From Candidatus Vecturithrix sp. (lineage in GTDB: Bacteria; Moduliflexota; Moduliflexia; Moduliflexales; Moduliflexaceae), in NCBI GenBank assembly GCA_040772385.1, contig JAXGYF010000001.1, forward strand, positions 6,701,049-6,765,048: 64,000 nt of DNA. Reading direction: 5' to 3'. The notes beneath the pieces were generated by a model. It was not told where the DNA came from. It saw only the letters and a list, made by a program, of their open reading frames with translations, and ran no database searches. Below are positions 1 through 62,142 of this stretch, piece after piece. Positions within the stretch are counted from its first letter, which is position 1; each line of letters opens with the position of its first letter. Made by a program: the position numbers and the translations under genes.

Positions 1-574
1 TGAAGTCTTGAAAAAAGGAGAACAGGTCCAGGCCGTCTTGCTAAATATTGATGTTGAACATGAACGACTCTCATTAGGCATCAAGCAATTGCAGACAAAT
101 CCCTGGGAAGGCATTGCCAATTCCATCTCAGTTGGCGATAACGTGACCGGCAAAGTCGTGCGTCTGACCGATTTTGGTGCGTTCATCGAATTGGAAAACG
201 GCATTGAAGGCTTATTGCACGTGTCGGAAATTTCCCACCAGCATGTTAAAAAACCTGAAGATGTGCTGTCGGTTGGGCAGGAAATTACGGCGAAAGTGAT
301 TAAACTGGACGAAGAAAATCGCCGCATTGGATTGAGCATTAAAGCCTATGACGAAGAAATGGGTAAAGGCGCAGAAGGTGAAGCTGAAGCTGCTGAAGAA
401 GGTCAGGAATTACCTGAAACACCTGAAACTGAAGCTGCGGAACCACAGATTGAAGAAACGCCTGTTGAAAAACCCGAACAAGCTGAAGCTGAAGCTCCGG
501 CAGAATCAGAGGCTGCAGGTGAAACTCTCACAGAACCCGAGCAAGAAGACTCCAAACAAGATGCTGCTCAGTAA
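1..574 (+). CDS. rpsA: 30S ribosomal protein S1, C-terminal portion (5' end outside window)
   Basis: ORF 8..574 is open to the window edge. S1-domain repeat signatures (GKVVRLTDFGAFIEL, GLLHVSEISHQHV) are followed by an acidic E/A/P-rich tail. Confidence 0.8.
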   Translation, partial: EVLKKGEQVQAVLLNIDVEHERLSLGIKQLQTNPWEGIANSISVGDNVTGKVVRLTDFGAFIELENGIEGLLHVSEISHQHVKKPEDVLSVGQEITAKVIKLDEENRRIGLSIKAYDEEMGKGAEGEAEAAEEGQELPETPETEAAEPQIEETPVEKPEQAEAEAPAESEAAGETLTEPEQEDSKQDAAQ

Positions 575-691: not shown

Positions 692-3628
692 TCACTTTTC
701 ATTCTTCTTCCGCTGTATCCACCGCCAGCCTTCACCAGCCCATAACACAACAGAGGTTCCTAAAATAATCAGAACCCATTCTTGCAAGGCAAGCGGAACA
801 GTTCGGAAAGCCGTTCCTCCGACCTGGATGATAAAAATCTGCCCGATAAAAATAGCGGAAGCGATCGCAACGAAACCTTTGTTTTCCATGAGACGATCAA
901 AGGCAGAATGCGTTAAACTAAGACAACGCGCATTAAACATATTCCAAAACTGACACATCACGAATATCGTGAAAAAGATGGTCAGTTCATGAGTACTGAC
1001 AACGCCATCACGCTGGATATAAATGAGTAGTCCCACAAAGAAAATCAGAAAAGCGGAAGCGACCGTTAAAATATTTTTCGTCATGGCTTTTGTGAGAATA
1101 AAATCGTGTGGGTCGCGCGGCGGACGTTTCATCACATCCCAATGCGGCGGTTCTGTGGCTAAGGCTAAGGCTGCAAAGGTATCCATAATCAAATTCACCC
1201 ACAACATTTGCGTCACCGTAAGCGGAATTTTCACTCCAATAAACGGACCAAGGAGCGCAATGCCTAAAGCTGCGACATTGATCGTTAATTGGAAAAGAAT
1301 AAAACGCTGAATATTTTCATATAACGACCGTCCCCACATCACGCCTTTGACAATGCTGGAAAAGGAATCATCCAACAGCACAATGTCGCTCGCTTCTTTC
1401 GCGACTGAAGTCCCGGTTTTGCCCATTGAAAGTCCGACATTCGCGTAATTCAAGGCAGGAGCATCATTCGTGCCGTCGCCTGTAACGGCAACGACCTGTT
1501 TACGCTTCTGGAGTAATTTGACCAGACGCATTTTATCTAAAGGCCGCGCGCGTGAGAGCACTTTCAAATTTGTCACAACCTGTTCAGCGTCTTCATCGGA
1601 TAGCTGCTCGAATTCCCGTCCTGTGAGATGGCGATCGCCCGTATCGCTTTCCTCCCATAAGTGAATCTGCCGTGCAATCTCTTTCGCCGTCTCCGAATTG
1701 TCGCCAGTGACAATCGTCACCTTAATCCCGGCGTTGCGACAGGTTTGAATGGCTTCCGGAACTTCAGGCCGGATCGGATCCGCAATCGCGACAAAGCCAA
1801 GCCAGATCATGTCACGGGTAATCTCTTCGATCTCAGTATGATCGGCAGGCGCATCATGATAGGCAAACGCCAGGGTACGCATTCCGCGTTGCTGATACCT
1901 GTGTAGTTTGGATTCAATATCAGCTTTTTCTGCTTCCCGGAAAGCTTGTTCACCTTCTGGCGTCAGAATACGGGTACAGTGACTCAGAATAATTTCAGGC
2001 GCGCCTTTAATGTGCAGAATACGGGTATTTGTACTTGACGATATTCCCAGGGTTGCCATATACTTCCGATCTGTCGAAAATGTCCACTGATAGCTGACCG
2101 GAAACTCATCGCGCTGCAGCACATAATCAATCCCCAGATTCTCAAGCCAGAGTAACAGCGCGCCTTCAGTCGGATTTCCAAGCGGCAGAGAGGTTCCAGA
2201 ACTGCGATCCAGGTGCGCGGTCGTATTTGCAGCAATCGCCTCGACAATCAGGCGTTCTCCTTGAGTTTGTTGTTCTTTGGTAAGCGTTGAATTTTCGCCA
2301 AGACAAGGAAAACTCACTTCATGGACCTGCATTTGATTGAGTGTTAAGGTTCCGGTTTTATCAGAACAGATCACGGTTGCCGCGCCAATAGTTTCACAGG
2401 CATGCATCCGGCGCACCAGGTTGTTGGCTGCCGTCATTTTACGCATACTGTACGCCAGACTCAGGGTGACGCTCATAGCCAAGCCTTCAGGCACAGCCAC
2501 AACAATAATGGTCACGGCGATCATAAAATAGGTCAGAAAATTTCGCCCGATCTCCGCCGGTATCCAGCTTTCTGAAGTTCCGGGCGTGAGACCAACCAGA
2601 TATCCGAAAAACGTGCCAATGAGCAGAATCCCCAGTCCAATGCCAGCCGTTTTGGCCCAACCGATTAAGCTATCATTCTCAAGCCAGTCTGGAGCTTGCA
2701 GTTCTTTGCCGAACAATTCAAATCCGTCGTAAAGAATGGGCAGCCATACCCGCACCAGAGCGATGATAACCGCGATTTTCAACACACCGACAAAATACCA
2801 TTGATGCAAACTTAACTGTAATTCTCCGGTGAATATATCACGAATGACAAGAGCGATATAAATTAACGCTGCCACAGTAAAGCCCACCACGCCGATTAAC
2901 TTGCTCAGGCGTTCGAGTTGGATATTCAGCGGAGTTTCTTCTTCAGTCTCCTCGGCGGCAGTCCGCGCGGTTTTTCCAACTTCGGTCGTATCGCCGACCG
3001 CCGAGATTTGCATGATGCCGTGTCCATCGGCTACCATTGTTCCCCGATATAACCTGTCGCGAGCGTAGGCAGTTTCCTCAATCGGCTGTATAGCGACTTC
3101 TTCACGCGATACCTTCTGGACCGGAATTGACTCACCGGTTAAACACGCTTCGTTGACATGAAAAGAGACCGCTTCCAAAATCTGACCGTCGGCCGGAATC
3201 TCTTCTCCTAATTCCACCAGAACAATATCACCCACAACCAAATCTTTTTTGGGCACTGTTGTAATGTTACCATCGCGAATCACTTTCACAGGCACTTCAT
3301 CGTTCACCTGATTCAGGATATCAAATTCCTTATTTGCCTTATATTCATTTAAAAACGCTAAGGTCGTCGCCAGCAAAATCGCAAGAATAATGCCGATGCC
3401 TTCAGCATATTTTCCATCAGCGATACCCACGCCAACCGCAATAATTGCGGCAATAATCAGAATACGAATGACGGGATCGTCGAATTTTTCCAATAAAAGT
3501 TTCCACCAGGGATCACGTTCCGGCGGAGTCAGGATATTACTGCCGTATTTTTGACGACTGGCTTCAACCTCAGCCGAGGTTAAACCTTTAAAACGCCCTG
3601 TGAGCTGCTTGTGACTTGTTTCTGCCAT
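692..3628 (-). CDS. P-type cation-transporting ATPase (type II, Ca2+/Mg2+-like)
   Basis: Motifs CSDKTGTLT, VTGDNSETA and VTGDGTNDAPAL are present, with about 10 TM segments. Start placed at MAETSHKQL behind GGAGAA; the longer ORF (to 3751) reads through the upstream palindrome, translating it as EKPGFWEKPGFF. Confidence 0.85.
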   Translation of the reverse strand: MAETSHKQLTGRFKGLTSAEVEASRQKYGSNILTPPERDPWWKLLLEKFDDPVIRILIIAAIIAVGVGIADGKYAEGIGIILAILLATTLAFLNEYKANKEFDILNQVNDEVPVKVIRDGNITTVPKKDLVVGDIVLVELGEEIPADGQILEAVSFHVNEACLTGESIPVQKVSREEVAIQPIEETAYARDRLYRGTMVADGHGIMQISAVGDTTEVGKTARTAAEETEEETPLNIQLERLSKLIGVVGFTVAALIYIALVIRDIFTGELQLSLHQWYFVGVLKIAVIIALVRVWLPILYDGFELFGKELQAPDWLENDSLIGWAKTAGIGLGILLIGTFFGYLVGLTPGTSESWIPAEIGRNFLTYFMIAVTIIVVAVPEGLAMSVTLSLAYSMRKMTAANNLVRRMHACETIGAATVICSDKTGTLTLNQMQVHEVSFPCLGENSTLTKEQQTQGERLIVEAIAANTTAHLDRSSGTSLPLGNPTEGALLLWLENLGIDYVLQRDEFPVSYQWTFSTDRKYMATLGISSSTNTRILHIKGAPEIILSHCTRILTPEGEQAFREAEKADIESKLHRYQQRGMRTLAFAYHDAPADHTEIEEITRDMIWLGFVAIADPIRPEVPEAIQTCRNAGIKVTIVTGDNSETAKEIARQIHLWEESDTGDRHLTGREFEQLSDEDAEQVVTNLKVLSRARPLDKMRLVKLLQKRKQVVAVTGDGTNDAPALNYANVGLSMGKTGTSVAKEASDIVLLDDSFSSIVKGVMWGRSLYENIQRFILFQLTINVAALGIALLGPFIGVKIPLTVTQMLWVNLIMDTFAALALATEPPHWDVMKRPPRDPHDFILTKAMTKNILTVASAFLIFFVGLLIYIQRDGVVSTHELTIFFTIFVMCQFWNMFNARCLSLTHSAFDRLMENKGFVAIASAIFIGQIFIIQVGGTAFRTVPLALQEWVLIILGTSVVLWAGEGWRWIQRKKNEK

Positions 3629-3656
3629 AATGTTGTTTTCTCCTTCTCTGTCGTTA

Positions 3657-3692
3657 AAGAAACCGGGTTTTTCCCAAAAACCCGGTTTCTCT
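3657..3692. repeat. PRE-family palindrome GAAACCGGGTTTTTCCCAAAAACCCGGTTTC, about 30 nt 5' of the ATPase RBS
   Basis: Inverted repeat read directly; same core as the other copies. Confidence 0.6.
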
Positions 3693-3696
3693 GTCA

Positions 3697-4224
3697 TTAC
3701 ATTGAACTGATAAGCCATCTTGCCAATCCTATTTTGGGGCCAAGCCACCATAAACCATACATCACAAGAACCGCATACACTGAACTGACGAGATCATCAA
3801 GTAAAATTCCCCAAGCGCCGTGAATTTGTTGATCGACCTGTCTGGCAGGCGGAATTTTGATAATGTCAAATATTCTGAATAACAAAAATCCCCAGAGCGC
3901 AACCTGCCAGAGCTGTCCTTGATGAAAAAGAAGCGGTACGAGTAAATACCCGGCCACTTCATCCAACACAAAATGTCCCGGATCTTCTTGCTGCCAATAG
4001 GCCACAGCCCAGGGCGTCAACCAGTTATTCGCCGCACAGACCAGAAAAAATACCACGAGAAGTGCGGGCCATTGCAGACTGAAAGGCAAAGTCAATACAA
4101 TCACAACATGCAGGATAACCCCTAATAATGTGCCGAACGTTCCGGGAGCAAAGGGCATCAAACCAAGTCCGAAAGCCGAACCAATAAGAAGGTACGCATA
4201 ATAGTTCTTTTGTTGTTTTTCCAT
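3697..4224 (-). CDS. pgpA: phosphatidylglycerophosphatase A
   Basis: About 175 aa polytopic protein with PGTFGTL and DIIKIPPA signatures typical of PgpA. Confidence 0.75.
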   Translation of the reverse strand: MEKQQKNYYAYLLIGSAFGLGLMPFAPGTFGTLLGVILHVVIVLTLPFSLQWPALLVVFFLVCAANNWLTPWAVAYWQQEDPGHFVLDEVAGYLLVPLLFHQGQLWQVALWGFLLFRIFDIIKIPPARQVDQQIHGAWGILLDDLVSSVYAVLVMYGLWWLGPKIGLARWLISSM

Positions 4225-8834: not shown

Positions 8835-8870
8835 TCCCGTGTAGAAGAAACCGGGTTTTTCACAAAAATC
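8835..8870. repeat. PRE-family palindrome GAAACCGGGTTTTTCACAAAAATCCGGTTTC
   Basis: Read from sequence; downstream of the 8877 gene stop and upstream of the neuB promoter region. Confidence 0.6.
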
Positions 8871-8876
8871 CGGTTT

Positions 8877-10223
8877 CTATTCCTGACGTTCGATCATCTG
8901 CCGCAAAATATTGACGATCCGTTCAGTAGCATGTCCATCGCAACGAATATACTCCTGTAAAAACGCCTGTCGTTCTGCCTCCAATTTGCTGCGAAGGGCA
9001 GAATCTTCAAGCACCCGACGTACAGAGGGGAGCAAATCGGACTGTCGGATCACATGCCAGGTTCCTCCGGCCTTTGCCCACATATCATAACCGGGAGTCT
9101 GGTAATAATCAAAGGTCAGCGTGGGTGTTCCTAAAATATGAGCATCAAACACAATAGTTGATCCCTGGCAGATCAACAGATCGCTGATGGCAATCAGTTT
9201 AGCGGTTTCATACCGGCGAATCACTGTAAAAGTCCCGGAATGATCTTGTAAATATGGTAAAGCCTCAGATTCATCACGTGGATGAACTTTGACCAGTAAA
9301 TGAAATGCCTCATTCAGGCTGAGTAATTGGGCGATGGTCTCGTGCAAATAAGCGTTCATCTGATCCATCGTAACATGTCCGGCCCGTGTACCAGCTTTAA
9401 TATGAGAAACAGGCGGCGCACCGAGCAACAGTAATCGCCTTTCCGCTGGTGCGCCGATCGCCTGGCAGATCTGTTCGCGCTCTGTGATTTTCCACTGCAC
9501 TCCGTTTTGAATCACCAGATCATGCCGCGGATGTCCTGTCGTCAGAATTTTGACAGGGTTCACTCCAGCCTTTAACAAGATACGCCGGTAATGTTCACCT
9601 GTGACCGCAACATAATCAGCCTGTCCACCGCCTAGAATCCAGGGATTTTCGGGATAGTTGGCAAACAGACGCATTCCTAAAATTGCTGAAGGCGGCTGCC
9701 AGAATACCGGTTGACCATCAACATGCTTGACGGCCTGAGGCGCAAGCCATGCAGCGCTGCGCCGCAAAATTTGTTCCGAGAATGATAGGCTGTGATGATT
9801 ACTCCGCTTCTGCCGCCAGGTCAGCATGGTTTCGGCATCATACGTTGCCGCCCACATAAGGACCAACGAGGGGATGCGACGCTCTTTGGCCTGGCTGACC
9901 AGAAAGGCTTCGACGTAGCGGCGATCATCGGTCAACACAAAGGCTGAGGGGTGAATTTCGTCGCAGAATTGCTGCGCAAAACGGCGCAGACCCCAGTTTT
10001 CTCGGAGAAATTGGAGCACGCCGCCAGTGAGATGCTGTCCCCATAAAAAATGCGGCATGCGCCGGGCAGGCAGATCAAATTCTGCACATACCGACCCGCA
10101 GGTCTGATCATTGGACGGCAAAAGAAAAAGAGGCTCGTCTCCCGAAGCCCGGAGTTGCTCAGCAATCGGCACGAACGTGCGAATCGCCTCATGATAATGA
10201 GGCATAAACACAATTATTCCCAT
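8877..10223 (-). CDS. capsule/glycan biosynthesis protein (second KpsC/KpsS-like or glycosyltransferase, tentative)
   Basis: 448 aa soluble protein adjacent to the nonulosonate cluster; family not verifiable by eye. Confidence 0.35.
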   Translation of the reverse strand: MGIIVFMPHYHEAIRTFVPIAEQLRASGDEPLFLLPSNDQTCGSVCAEFDLPARRMPHFLWGQHLTGGVLQFLRENWGLRRFAQQFCDEIHPSAFVLTDDRRYVEAFLVSQAKERRIPSLVLMWAATYDAETMLTWRQKRSNHHSLSFSEQILRRSAAWLAPQAVKHVDGQPVFWQPPSAILGMRLFANYPENPWILGGGQADYVAVTGEHYRRILLKAGVNPVKILTTGHPRHDLVIQNGVQWKITEREQICQAIGAPAERRLLLLGAPPVSHIKAGTRAGHVTMDQMNAYLHETIAQLLSLNEAFHLLVKVHPRDESEALPYLQDHSGTFTVIRRYETAKLIAISDLLICQGSTIVFDAHILGTPTLTFDYYQTPGYDMWAKAGGTWHVIRQSDLLPSVRRVLEDSALRSKLEAERQAFLQEYIRCDGHATERIVNILRQMIERQE

Positions 10224-15434: not shown

Positions 15435-15472
15435 GAGAAACCAGGTTTTCAGGAAAAAACCTGGTTTCTTCG
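15435..15472. repeat. PRE-family palindrome (variant GAAACCAGGTTTTCAGGAAAAAACCTGGTTTC) between Hsp70-C and the Hsp70-B leader
   Basis: Read from sequence. Confidence 0.6.
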
Positions 15473-18397: not shown

Positions 18398-18413
18398 ATT
18401 TTTCCTCCAAACA

Positions 18414-18462
18414 GGAGTGCGAAAGCTCTGCTTTCGCAACGAAAGCAGAGCTTTCGCACTCC
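18414..18462. repeat. Family-S perfect hairpin GGAGTGCGAAAGCTCTGCTTTCG-caa-CGAAAGCAGAGCTTTCGCACTCC
   Basis: 23-bp perfect arms read from sequence, between the vWA and TerD-2 genes. Confidence 0.6.
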
Positions 18463-18470
18463 TATATTCT

Positions 18471-22462: not shown

Positions 22463-22495
22463 GCCGGTTTTTTCAAAAACCGAGTTTTTCTCACT
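22463..22495. repeat. Degenerate PRE-family palindrome (GGCCGGTTTTTTCAAAAACCGAGTTTTTC)
   Basis: Read from sequence. Confidence 0.45.
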
Positions 22496-22540
22496 CAAAA
22501 AAGAATTGTGTCCTTTTGAAGAAATTGTCAACAGGAATCT

Positions 22541-23337: not shown

Positions 23338-23412
23338 TCTCCCATGTAAATGAAATATCTCTTCGTACGTGTCAGAAACCGGGTTTTTTGAAAAAACCCG
23401 GTTTCTATGCTT
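23338..23412. repeat. Extended PRE cassette: palindrome + CTGACACG + ..TATTTCATTTACATGGGAG (RBS) directly 5' of the crotonase gene
   Basis: Near-identical to the cassettes at 60022 and 59533. Confidence 0.6.
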
Positions 23413-23422
23413 GACTCCTGGA

Positions 23423-28117: not shown

Positions 28118-28150
28118 CGTTTTTCTCCTTGTTTTTTATAGAGCTCAATA

Positions 28151-28183
28151 AAAGCCGGGTTTTTTGAAAAAACCCGGCTTTTC
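28151..28183. repeat. PRE-family palindrome AAAGCCGGGTTTTTTGAAAAAACCCGGCTTT
   Basis: Read from sequence, between the MFP stop and the SBP start. Confidence 0.6.
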
Positions 28184-42138: not shown

Positions 42139-42172
42139 TATGTCCTTCTCCTATATGTGTAAGAAACCGGGT

Positions 42173-42203
42173 TTTTAGCAAAAACCCGGTTTCTCTGCAA
42201 AAG
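42173..42203. repeat. PRE-family palindrome GAAACCGGGTTTTTAGCAAAAACCCGGTTTC, about 35 nt 5' of the carbamoyltransferase start, followed by the TTACAC..GGAGAAGG module
   Basis: Read from sequence. Confidence 0.6.
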
Positions 42204-52205: not shown

Positions 52206-52357
52206 AGCTCGTAAAAACCGGGTTTTTGTTTTTTGAAAGAATTTGTCTGGACATACTGGACATTCTCATATTTGTTTTGCTTTTCCAATCAAATGCTGAT
52301 TTTTTCACAGTTTACCTTTACTACCCGTACTTGCCACAGGAGGAGCCATTCCTCATG

Positions 52358-54175: not shown

Positions 54176-54208
54176 AAAAACCAGGTTTCTTGAAGAAACC
54201 TGGTTTTT
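54176..54208. repeat. PRE-family palindrome (AAAAACCAGGTTTCTTGAAGAAACCTGGTTTTT) ending 8 nt before the activase start codon, in place of an SD
   Basis: Read from sequence. Confidence 0.6.
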
Positions 54209-58241: not shown

Positions 58242-58298
58242 ATCGGAATTGCCCACGAAACACACGAAAGGACACGGAAAAAAGAAAATAATGGAGGG

Positions 58299-58359
58299 CT
58301 TACGCAATCCCCCCCTCAGTCCCCCCGCTTGCGGGGGGATAAAGGGGGGTGTGCGTAAG
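58299..58359. repeat. GC-rich hairpin CTTACGCA-ATCCCCCCTCAGTCCCCCC-GCTTGC-GGGGGGATAAAGGGGGG-TGTGCGTAAG, related to the motifs in 46715-47108
   Basis: Read from sequence. Confidence 0.45.
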
Positions 58360-58422
58360 TCCTGTAATGAATACTTTAGAACACTACACTGGATTTGAGA
58401 ATGGAGCAGACACACGTGAAAG

Positions 58423-58453
58423 AAACCGGGTTTTTCGAAAAAACCCGGTTTCT
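58423..58453. repeat. PRE-family palindrome GAAACCGGGTTTTTCGAAAAAACCCGGTTTC
   Basis: Read from sequence. Confidence 0.6.
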
Positions 58454-58570
58454 ATACTCGGTTCCTTTACATCCGTTGAATTCTTTCATCCGTTGTAGTG
58501 TTTGACAGGAGCCAGATTTTTCTTTTTTCCGTGTCTTTCCGGGTGTTTTGTGGGCCCCTCCCCAACTCTT

Positions 58571-59518: not shown

Positions 59519-59532
59519 GTTTACCTCCCATG

Positions 59533-59598
59533 TAGATGAAATTTTCATTCGTGCGGACAAAAACCGAGTTTTTTCGGAAAAACTCGGGTTTTTCTGAC
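59533..59598. repeat. Extended PRE cassette (variant palindrome AAAAACCGAGTTTTTTCGGAAAAACTCGGGTTTTT + GTCCGCACGAATGAAAATTTCATCTACATGGGAGG) 5' of the ROK gene
   Basis: Read from sequence. Confidence 0.55.
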
Positions 59599-59602
59599 TG
59601 AC

Positions 59603-60016
59603 TCATTCTTCATTGATAATACTGACTCCTAACCGAGCCATTTTCATATCTTCCTGTTCCGGTAAACTGCTGACGCCAACCGCACCAATCACCTGACCTT
59701 GATACACAATCGGGACTCCGCCGCCCCAACTGGTATAACGCACATCCCCGAAATTGCTCATCGGGAATCCCTTGTCGCGGGAAGACTGTCCGATTTTTGC
59801 AGACTCTTTCCGTTCACGCGCGGCAGTAAAGGCCTTATTGATTGCAATATTGATGGATGGTAAACGACAGCCATCGGTGCGCAGAAAGGCTATCAATTCG
59901 CCCTGGGCATCCACGACAGCAACCGCGGCTCCTTTCTGACCTTTTTCCAGTTCTGCCTGAATCGCAGTAATAATTTTGAGTGCATCAGCATGTGAAAGCT
60001 GGTAACTCTGGTACAT
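59603..60016 (-). CDS. GlcG/DUF336-family (heme-binding-like) protein
   Basis: 137 aa with GlcG-like pattern (AAVAVVDAQGELIAF...GGGVPI...GAVGVSS). Confidence 0.6.
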   Translation of the reverse strand: MYQSYQLSHADALKIITAIQAELEKGQKGAAVAVVDAQGELIAFLRTDGCRLPSINIAINKAFTAARERKESAKIGQSSRDKGFPMSNFGDVRYTSWGGGVPIVYQGQVIGAVGVSSLPEQEDMKMARLGVSIINEE

Positions 60017-60021
60017 GAATC

Positions 60022-60095
60022 TTCTCCCATGTAAATGAAATATTCATTCCTGCGTGTAAGAAACCGGGTTTTTTGAAAAAACCCGGTTTCTATGC
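60022..60095. repeat. Extended PRE cassette (palindrome + TTACACGCAGGAATGAATATTTCATTTACATGGGAGAAG) immediately 5' of the GlcG-like start
   Basis: Read from sequence; near-identical to 23338-23412. Confidence 0.6.
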
Positions 60096-60162
60096 TTCAC
60101 TCCTTTGAATGTCGCGCGAGATTATATTTCACGCCCGCGAAACCGGAGTTTCGCGGGGACAT

Positions 60163-62069: not shown

Positions 62070-62142
62070 AATTGAATCGCCGTGGAGGGATCTGTCAGGT
62101 TTTCAAAACCTGACAGATCGTGTTAAAATCACCTGTTTGTCG

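Follow-up and report, generated by a model that had tools for sequence, protein, structure and literature searches.

REP/BIME sequences are short extragenic palindromes, present in hundreds of copies, which attenuate transcription and protect upstream mRNA. The Correia (NEMIS) elements of Neisseria are co-transcribed intergenic inverted repeats whose hairpins affect mRNA processing or termination. The SDRs of Nostocaceae, described by Elhai et al., are reportedly mobile repeats far below MITE size and occur in a hairpin context. In the account of them given in PMC5861425 they are 21–27 nt long and confined to Nostocaceae, and they are also cited in PMC3116915, which concerns the REPIN/RAYT system.

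The DNA analysed here, referred to as the window, is a 64-kb stretch from the filamentous wastewater bacterium Candidatus Vecturithrix sp. (KSB3/Moduliflexota). Candidatus Vecturithrix is placed in Candidatus Moduliflexota, formerly KSB3. Ca. V. granuli ("Bacterium UASB270") is a filamentous bacterium from a bulking UASB reactor with a genome of 8.4 Mb and 47.2% GC (PMC4312070), a value with which the GC content of the window agrees. The window carries a family of palindromes which, on balance, we consider to be very small (~33 bp) non-autonomous REP/MITE-like elements, perfect in symmetry and mobile, and putatively acting as partial terminators and 3′-end protectors that tune neighbouring cistrons. 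A literature search with the sequence returned one irrelevant plant paper, and no description of the palindrome or of the family was found in work on repeats of Anaerolineae and Vecturithrix, on mobile elements of Beggiatoa and cyanobacteria or on in-frame palindromic elements.

The palindrome family in the window

The palindrome follows the consensus AGAAACC-N-GGTTTTT / loop / AAAAACC-N′-GGTTTCT and occurs in 13 copies in the 64-kb window, 11 of them intact. Its half-site, AAACCGGGTTTTTT, is matched 37 times with at most two mismatches against an expectation of 1.04, a count that was not reached in any of 100 shuffles. In an inverted-repeat scan nearly all of these matches pair as perfect inverted repeats with arms of 15–16 nt and loops of 1–4 nt, single unpaired half-sites being almost absent from the window. 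The unit is thus a perfect palindrome of about 33 bp, found roughly once per 5 kb. The intact copies have their centres at 662, 3674, 8862, 15452, 23390, 28166, 42178, 54192, 58437, 59576 and 60075, with a degenerate copy at about 22483 and a half copy at about 52230. The half-site and inverted-repeat searches re-found all 13 copies within about 10 nt of the positions given in an initial annotation of the window, which had also described them as always intergenic and spaced by about 5 kb; this holds for every window copy, since two assignments "inside an ORF" are artefacts of an ORF extension and of a spurious opposite-strand ORF.

Almost all genes of the window lie on the minus strand and, read in that direction, each palindrome comes after a stop codon and before the next gene. 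The distance from stop codon to palindrome has a median of 18.5 nt (n = 24). The palindromes themselves are symmetric and are given without strand. The copy at 646–678, of an AAAAACC..GGTTTTT subtype followed by T8, is placed between convergent genes, an S1-domain gene (8–574, plus strand) and a P-type ATPase gene (692–3646, minus strand). That at 3658–3690 lies 6 nt past the PgpA stop codon; CTTTAACGACAGAGAAGGAG comes next, and then the P-type ATPase ATG. The copy at 8846–8878 abuts the TAG stop codon of the gene at 8877–10223 and carries one uncompensated change (CCGGA/CCCGG), while that at 15436–15469, between two Hsp70-family genes, is a compensated CCAGG/CCTGG variant. A degenerate, truncated copy (22468–22500) retains a CTCGG arm and part of the second arm. 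At 28150–28182, 6 nt past the stop codon of an HlyD-family gene, is a compensated AAGCC/GGCTT variant. A short form (42162–42194) with CGGAG.. upstream and ..CTTACACATATAGGAG downstream precedes the carbamoyltransferase ATG, and a second short form is found at 58421–58453. The copy at 54176–54208, between a Dabb gene and a radical-SAM activase gene, has CCAGG/CCTGG and a stem pair changed from U-A to C-G; as the initial annotation stated, its hairpin ends 8 nt ahead of the activase ATG with no Shine-Dalgarno (SD) sequence.

Several other palindromes are present in the window. One at 596–627 (AAAACCCGC..GAAAACAGGTTTTT) adjoins the first copy between the same convergent genes and has the same architecture as another at 62089–62119 (GATCTGTCAGGTTTT.AAAACCTGACAGATC), in which a GC core surrounds a centre of T-run and A-run. 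At 18413–18463 there is a member of a different palindrome family, whose perfect arms measure 24 nt (AGGAGTGCGAAAGCTCTGCTTTCG and its reverse complement). This family is also found in Ca. V. granuli, at loci L023, L048 and L052, and in L048 it immediately follows the focal palindrome.

Three window copies form part of a longer cassette, GGAG-TSAAGCATAG, palindrome, CTTACACG-N3-GAATGAAWATTTCATYTACATGGGAG, of 76–77 nt. The conserved cassette of about 70 nt noted at these sites in the initial annotation is real, with three occurrences in the window (23339–23363, 59525–59549 and 60024–60048) against none expected; it is found twice more in a syntenic contig of a relative (L105, below), and Ca. V. 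granuli has three or more examples. The cassette at 23339–23418 (minus strand) reads GGAG-TCAAGCATAG, palindrome (23374–23406), CTGACACG.., TTTCATTTACATGGGAG and, 6 nt further on, the ATG with which an enoyl-CoA hydratase gene starts; the two others, at 59525–59605 and 60024–60103, are described with their alleles below. No match to a sigma-70-like promoter was obtained in a promoter scan of the cassette, and a promoter within it was rejected on this ground.

The cassette had been proposed to supply the ribosome-binding site (RBS) of the downstream gene. This appears to be so usually, although not always: GGGAG lies 8–9 nt ahead of an ATG in five of seven long cassettes, which largely supports the proposal, whereas in the remaining two (L046 and L105-2527) no start codon follows GGGAG at SD distance, and the gene in L046 has its own SD (AAAGGAG) some 40 nt further downstream. 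In the two cases that were resolved (sites A and B, below), the long form is located exactly at the SD GGAG belonging to the downstream gene and has a GGAG of its own at its end, so that the gene retains an RBS. Such spacing, together with the length and perfection of the duplex, is what might be expected if the hairpin were a processing site at which RNase III or RNase E cut and so gave the downstream cistron a new 5′ end, the cassette then acting as a portable 5′ UTR. Correia elements offer a precedent for this. Nevertheless, a stem of 15–16 bp is short for RNase III and two of the cassettes are without a suitably placed start codon. Moreover, the AT-rich second palindrome proposed within the cassette (GAATGAA(A/T)ATTTCAT) has no support from covariation, its pairing being broken in the 23339 copy. 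Judged from these sequence features, a processing site seems improbable.

In an alignment of the 11 intact copies, the palindrome helix of 16 pairs has 96.6% of its cells paired, and six of the 16 pairs are changed on both sides (G-C to A-U, A-U to G-C and U-A to C-G), a figure that no shuffle in 500 matches; when the partner is slid by one column, pairing in the same alignment falls to about 70%. The compensatory changes between arms that had been noted earlier are therefore genuine, while the stem length of 9–13 bp given with them was too short, the measured value being 15–16 bp. The changes are strictly Watson-Crick, with almost no wobble pairs. In a wider sample, the CCNGG centre is free to vary and yet remains complementary (CCGGG/CCCGG, CCCGG/CCGGG, CCAGG/CCTGG and CCGAG/CTCGG). 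In RNA folding the copies adopt the expected stem-loop, at z-scores between −3 and −5. Rfam gave no match in the window at gathering score, and in a permissive scan the cassette produced chance-level matches only (E ≥ 0.4, far below gathering).

Perfect dyad symmetry of this type could also be that of an operator for a dimeric DNA-binding regulator, or of paired DNA-uptake signals as in Neisseria and Haemophilus, and the palindrome is indeed common to bacteria reported to exchange genes (PMC6390638). However, the genes flanking the copies are functionally unrelated (P-type ATPase, PgpA, NeuB, Hsp70 paralogues, HlyD/AcrB, QueA, carbamoyltransferase, ABC permeases, an HbpS-like protein, ROK, and a glycyl-radical enzyme with its activase), so that the palindrome does not mark a regulon and a regulon operator is unlikely. 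Changes compensated on two arms are not expected of a protein half-site. Unpaired half-sites are almost absent, while most uptake sequences occur singly and often within genes. We regard both proposals as extremely unlikely.

Alleles with and without the palindrome

The ROK protein of the window is 97% identical to that of a Candidatus Vecturithrix sp. MAG, whose contig JAVEVG010000146.1 (L105) is syntenic with the window from 48.3 to 60.9 kb at 90–95% nucleotide identity; exact-protein look-up with three other flanking genes returned no record. Comparison with this contig and with assembled Logan contigs provides the presence/absence test among related strains that the initial annotation had called for, and both filled and empty alleles were obtained, between strains 99.5% identical and between relatives at 92% amino-acid identity.

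The first site (A, 60075) lies between a permease gene and the HbpS-like gene. Here the cassette at 60024–60103 (minus strand) is bounded by GGAG (60100–60103) and GGGAG (60024–60028), with the palindrome at 60059–60091. Three Logan contigs (L001–L003), with flanks 99.5% identical to the window, are without both palindrome and cassette, while a fourth (L004) carries the palindrome and terminates within it. The alleles differ by a further 20-nt rearrangement, and the difference is not a clean insertion. Just past the permease stop codon, at 60130–60155, the window has a hairpin, CCCGCGAAAC-TCCG-GTTTCGCGGG, which is swapped in the 99.5%-identical strains for a variant, GTCGCGCGAAAC-TCCA-GTTTCATGCGAC, with a 20-nt difference.

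The second site (B, 59576) lies between the HbpS-like and ROK genes, where a 77-nt insert is present in the window, in L105 and in L002. The window cassette (59525–59605, minus strand) begins with TGAG, contains the palindrome at 59559–59592 (CCGAG/CTCGG) and continues with GAATGAAAATTTCATCTACATGGGAGG to the ROK ATG. In relatives with 92% amino-acid identity (L111–L113), HbpS and ROK overlap by ATGAGTAA and the RBS, GAAGGAGG, lies inside HbpS. Single-gap alignments place the insert at both A and B exactly at the Shine-Dalgarno GGAG, each insert ending in GGAG; at B the left GGAG is now TGAG and provides the new HbpS stop codon. More distant HbpS–ROK neighbours are separated by gaps of 23–58 nt and have no palindrome, which makes insertion, rather than deletion, the likely direction of change at this site. 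In one relative with 75% amino-acid identity (L110, a 6.5-Mb ENA contig), the locus has neither an HbpS gene nor the focal palindrome, and a spacer of 930 nt (L110:9073–10000) is filled with other GC-rich hairpin repeats.

Further differences are seen along the syntenic region. The Dabb/activase spacer (54192) is 47 nt long with the palindrome in the window and an unrelated 185 nt without it in L105. At 52230, a full palindrome in L105 corresponds to a collapsed half in the window (52212–52228), from which the centre is deleted. In the ROK/PFL spacer, L105 has the long form where the window has the short form at 58421–58453, the latter being without a 28-nt module, AATGAAAATTTCATTTACATGGGAGAAA; this 3′ module thus varies independently of the palindrome. 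Two other repeats were observed in these spacers. A sequence ACTACAACGGATGAAAGAAT(T/A)(C/G)AACGGAT is shared by the ROK/PFL spacer of the window (58471–58499) and the Dabb/activase spacer of L105 (L105:6695–6723). An insertion of about 75 nt (58290–58365) that is absent from L105 contains a hairpin with G/C runs (CCCCCC..GGGGGG). Its ends are inverted repeats, GGRCTTACGCA, and CATTA flanks it on either side, so that it looks like a separate small MITE.

These alleles support the view that the palindrome family behaves as mobile or indel-polymorphic DNA. The earlier designation as a "MITE/Correia-like mobile hairpin" can consequently be kept in its first part, as a mobile or indel-polymorphic dispersed repeat; membership of the Correia elements does not stand, given a unit of 33 bp against 100–155 bp and no TA duplication. 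MITEs are 50–500 bp long with terminal inverted repeats, whereas the 33-bp unit is made up of inverted repeats alone. As to a target-site duplication such as MITEs produce, GGAG is found on both sides of the 76–77-nt long form in the two filled/empty comparisons, where it may itself belong to the element. No related autonomous IS with the same termini was found in 100 loci. Clustering of the ORFs from these 100 loci returned only common families such as WD40, kinases and ABC transporters, with no transposase shared between copies. Among 148 neighbouring ORFs scanned against Pfam there were PIN and Uma2 domains and no transposase, and no RAYT was found near copies in the 64 kb of the window genome or in 8-kb pieces of the others. 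Uma2 was considered as an associated enzyme and rejected, the geometry of the four Uma2 genes being inconsistent; their occurrence near copies is presumably no commoner than expected from the abundance of Uma2 in cyanobacteria. Candidate ways of spread would be the action in trans of a hairpin-specific enzyme, or recombination at GGAG microhomology.

The palindromes also have a practical consequence, in that they fragment short-read de Bruijn assemblies: Logan contigs of the species break inside them, at the end of L004 and at the start of L002 (window 60074 and 58424).

Copies in other phyla and within genes

Among the matches listed in a genome scan, at least 17 palindrome loci belong to Ca. 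V. granuli, at least 34 are labelled Chloroflexota (mostly Anaerolineae, some on contigs of more than 1 Mb) and at least 24 are labelled cyanobacteria (Microcoleus, Oscillatoria, Microseira, Rivularia and Stigonema). The same matches include HIP1-rich "uncultured bacterium" MAGs and at least one Desulfococcaceae MAG, and the palindrome is letter-for-letter identical in at least three other phyla among them; none is from Pseudomonadota, Bacillota or Bacteroidota. The palindrome is absent from 21 kb of the L110 control (the 75% amino-acid identity relative), from 36 unrelated metagenome loci and from viral contigs (0 matches), and a scan of JGI metagenomes for the long cassette gave 0 matches. 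The cyanobacterial copies lie inside a more extensive inverted repeat, ..ACAATACCTTCGCC..GAGATTTAAG-palindrome-CTGGCGGGCGA..GGCGAAGGTATTGT.., and sometimes form tandem arrays with a period of 59–60 and identical spacers (L065:4011–4230, L103:7472–7640 and other loci). The identity of the spacers led us to reject a CRISPR assignment for these arrays.

In high-GC Anaerolineales MAGs the palindrome occurs in frame within genes for IorA, ADP-forming acetyl-CoA synthetase, a xanthine-dehydrogenase-family protein and isoaspartyl peptidase (L047:1186–1215 and 4084–4113; L053:3249–3278; L054:6656–6685; L063:3933–3962; IorA in L189 and L190). The consensus is stop-free in every frame and the encoded peptide is ETGFFGKNPVS, RNRVFSEKPGF or KPGFSEKTRFL. 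Such in-frame, stop-free copies within ORFs were found in the Anaerolineae relatives only, the window having no intragenic copy. Comparison with PDB homologues places the in-ORF copies in variable loops; it was the close orthologues, unlike the PDB homologues, that settled whether these copies are insertions. In IorA, the loop concerned reads LPIPEDLFQG in most of 120 homologues and the palindrome-encoded peptide in a subset, and an orthologue 79% identical (L191) is without the palindrome, though its genome carries it elsewhere. Three IorA orthologues have CCGGG/CCCGG (G/P), CCTGG/CCAGG (W/Q) and CCAGG/CCTGG (R/L) at the same codon position. As read from these sequences, either the structure may be kept at the expense of the protein sequence or repeated insertions may have struck the site. 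In-frame copies which keep their complementarity at the cost of amino acids would be rare cases in which a nucleic-acid structure visibly overrides a protein sequence.

The host set matches the filamentous lineages that have been proposed to exchange genes (PMC6390638). A broader proposal, which we put forward as speculative and rather unlikely, is that a sequence-specific hairpin element, more than a REP confined to one lineage, has spread horizontally between filamentous bacteria belonging to four or more phyla (Moduliflexota, Chloroflexota/Anaerolineae, filamentous Cyanobacteriota and Desulfococcaceae), with its structure maintained even within genes and with preferential insertion at the SD GGAG. 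If true, this would imply a trans-acting factor, for example a hairpin-specific nuclease/transposase or a termination factor, travelling with the palindrome. The palindrome would offer a compact marker, and perhaps a vehicle, of exchange among the filamentous lineages of PMC6390638.

Possible roles and related systems

Every 3′ arm consists of a CCNGG clamp followed by T3–8 (TTTCTT, TTTTTC, TTTTTTTT), and one subtype of the palindrome in the genus ends in T5–8. The Us of the putative terminator pair with the 5′ A-run of the same palindrome. The initial annotation had argued that most copies have no 3′ U-tract and are not simple terminators; this is doubtful, since it depends on counting these Us as stem, and the clamp with T3–8 in every copy makes terminator or attenuator activity plausible. 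An intrinsic terminator that works in both directions would have this shape, although most copies have an interrupted U-tract (UUUCUU). Only two copies were flagged by a simple terminator scan, no sense-side T enrichment was detected in the flanks of the palindromes, and sense-strand transition mismatches (12 G-U against 6 A-C) do not differ significantly, so that a role at the RNA level is no more than plausible. A strong terminator between the formerly coupled HbpS and ROK genes would silence the downstream genes, which suggests that termination is at most partial.

The layout of A-run, GC clamp and T-run, the location downstream of genes and the copy between convergent genes might equally be produced by ordinary intrinsic terminators that have come to resemble each other by convergent selection for one bidirectional design, without any repeat family or mobility. 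Yet conservation extends into the flanks beyond the stem (GGAGTSAAGCATAG upstream, CTTACACG.. downstream), and a 76-nt cassette is common to the window and Ca. V. granuli. The C of TTTCT is invariant even though T would suit a terminator better, in-frame coding copies exist, and sites are polymorphic for presence and absence. Shared flanks and polymorphism have already largely refuted convergence, which we consider very unlikely.

A more serious possibility, although one that we think less than probable, is that the palindromes are purely selfish and are tolerated in spacers with no effect on the transcript, their complementarity being kept by the copying mechanism or by repair of one arm from the other when the DNA forms a hairpin or cruciform. 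Their fast turnover between close strains, the full symmetry of the element with no sense-strand bias in its tails or in G-U versus A-C mismatches, the strictly Watson-Crick changes with few wobble pairs and the copies within ORFs of other lineages would all be consistent with this. However, copies sit tightly just past stop codons, in-ORF copies stay complementary across orthologues at about 75% amino-acid identity, which suggests that something maintains the structure, and a GC-clamped mRNA hairpin of 15 bp cannot be physically neutral.

We favour a mobile palindrome with an effect on its transcript. A transcribed copy would fold into a stem-loop of 15–16 bp (about −20 to −25 kcal/mol) some 18 nt past the upstream stop codon, and the CCNGG clamp followed by U3–8 would form a symmetric, probably partial, intrinsic terminator and 3′-end protector. 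As such, the hairpin would tune rather than abolish expression between adjacent cistrons. If this role holds, a tiny palindrome reshapes the operons of an uncultured bulking bacterium, and its insertion has split a translationally coupled gene pair, giving a new stop codon and RBS context.

Among known systems, the family most resembles REP/BIME of Enterobacteria and Pseudomonas, which are mobilised by RAYT (TnpA-REP): these are also extragenic palindromes of 20–40 nt located after stop codons inside operons, with compensatory stem changes, and the 13 intergenic copies in 64 kb with arms of 15–16 nt agree with REP in size and placement. Unlike REP and REPIN, the present palindrome has perfect full symmetry (AGAAACC...GGTTTCT), no asymmetric GTAG-type head and no REPIN doublets in the window; no RAYT was found near its copies, it is shared by four phyla and it also occurs in frame within genes. 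Correia/NEMIS elements, the analogy chosen in the initial annotation, are likewise intergenic, hairpin-forming inverted repeats; however, they measure 100–155 bp, carry terminal repeats of 26 bp and an IHF site and show a TA duplication, whereas the present unit is 33 bp long, or 76 nt as the long cassette, with junctions at GGAG. Rickettsia palindromic elements (RPE) are, like the Anaerolineae copies, in-frame stop-free palindromes within coding genes, but they are 100–150 bp long and restricted to Rickettsia, and the window copies are all outside genes. SDRs, likened here by description only, share with the palindrome a mobile, sub-MITE nature and cyanobacterial hosts. Inverted DUS/USS pairs serving as terminators similarly place the same short inverted repeat downstream of many genes, whereas single half-sites, nearly absent here, distinguish those systems. 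By analogy, the palindrome would work like REP/BIME and, in coding regions, like RPE, while belonging to none of the REP, Correia or RPE families; its spread across phyla and its compensated coding copies set it apart from an ordinary REP family.
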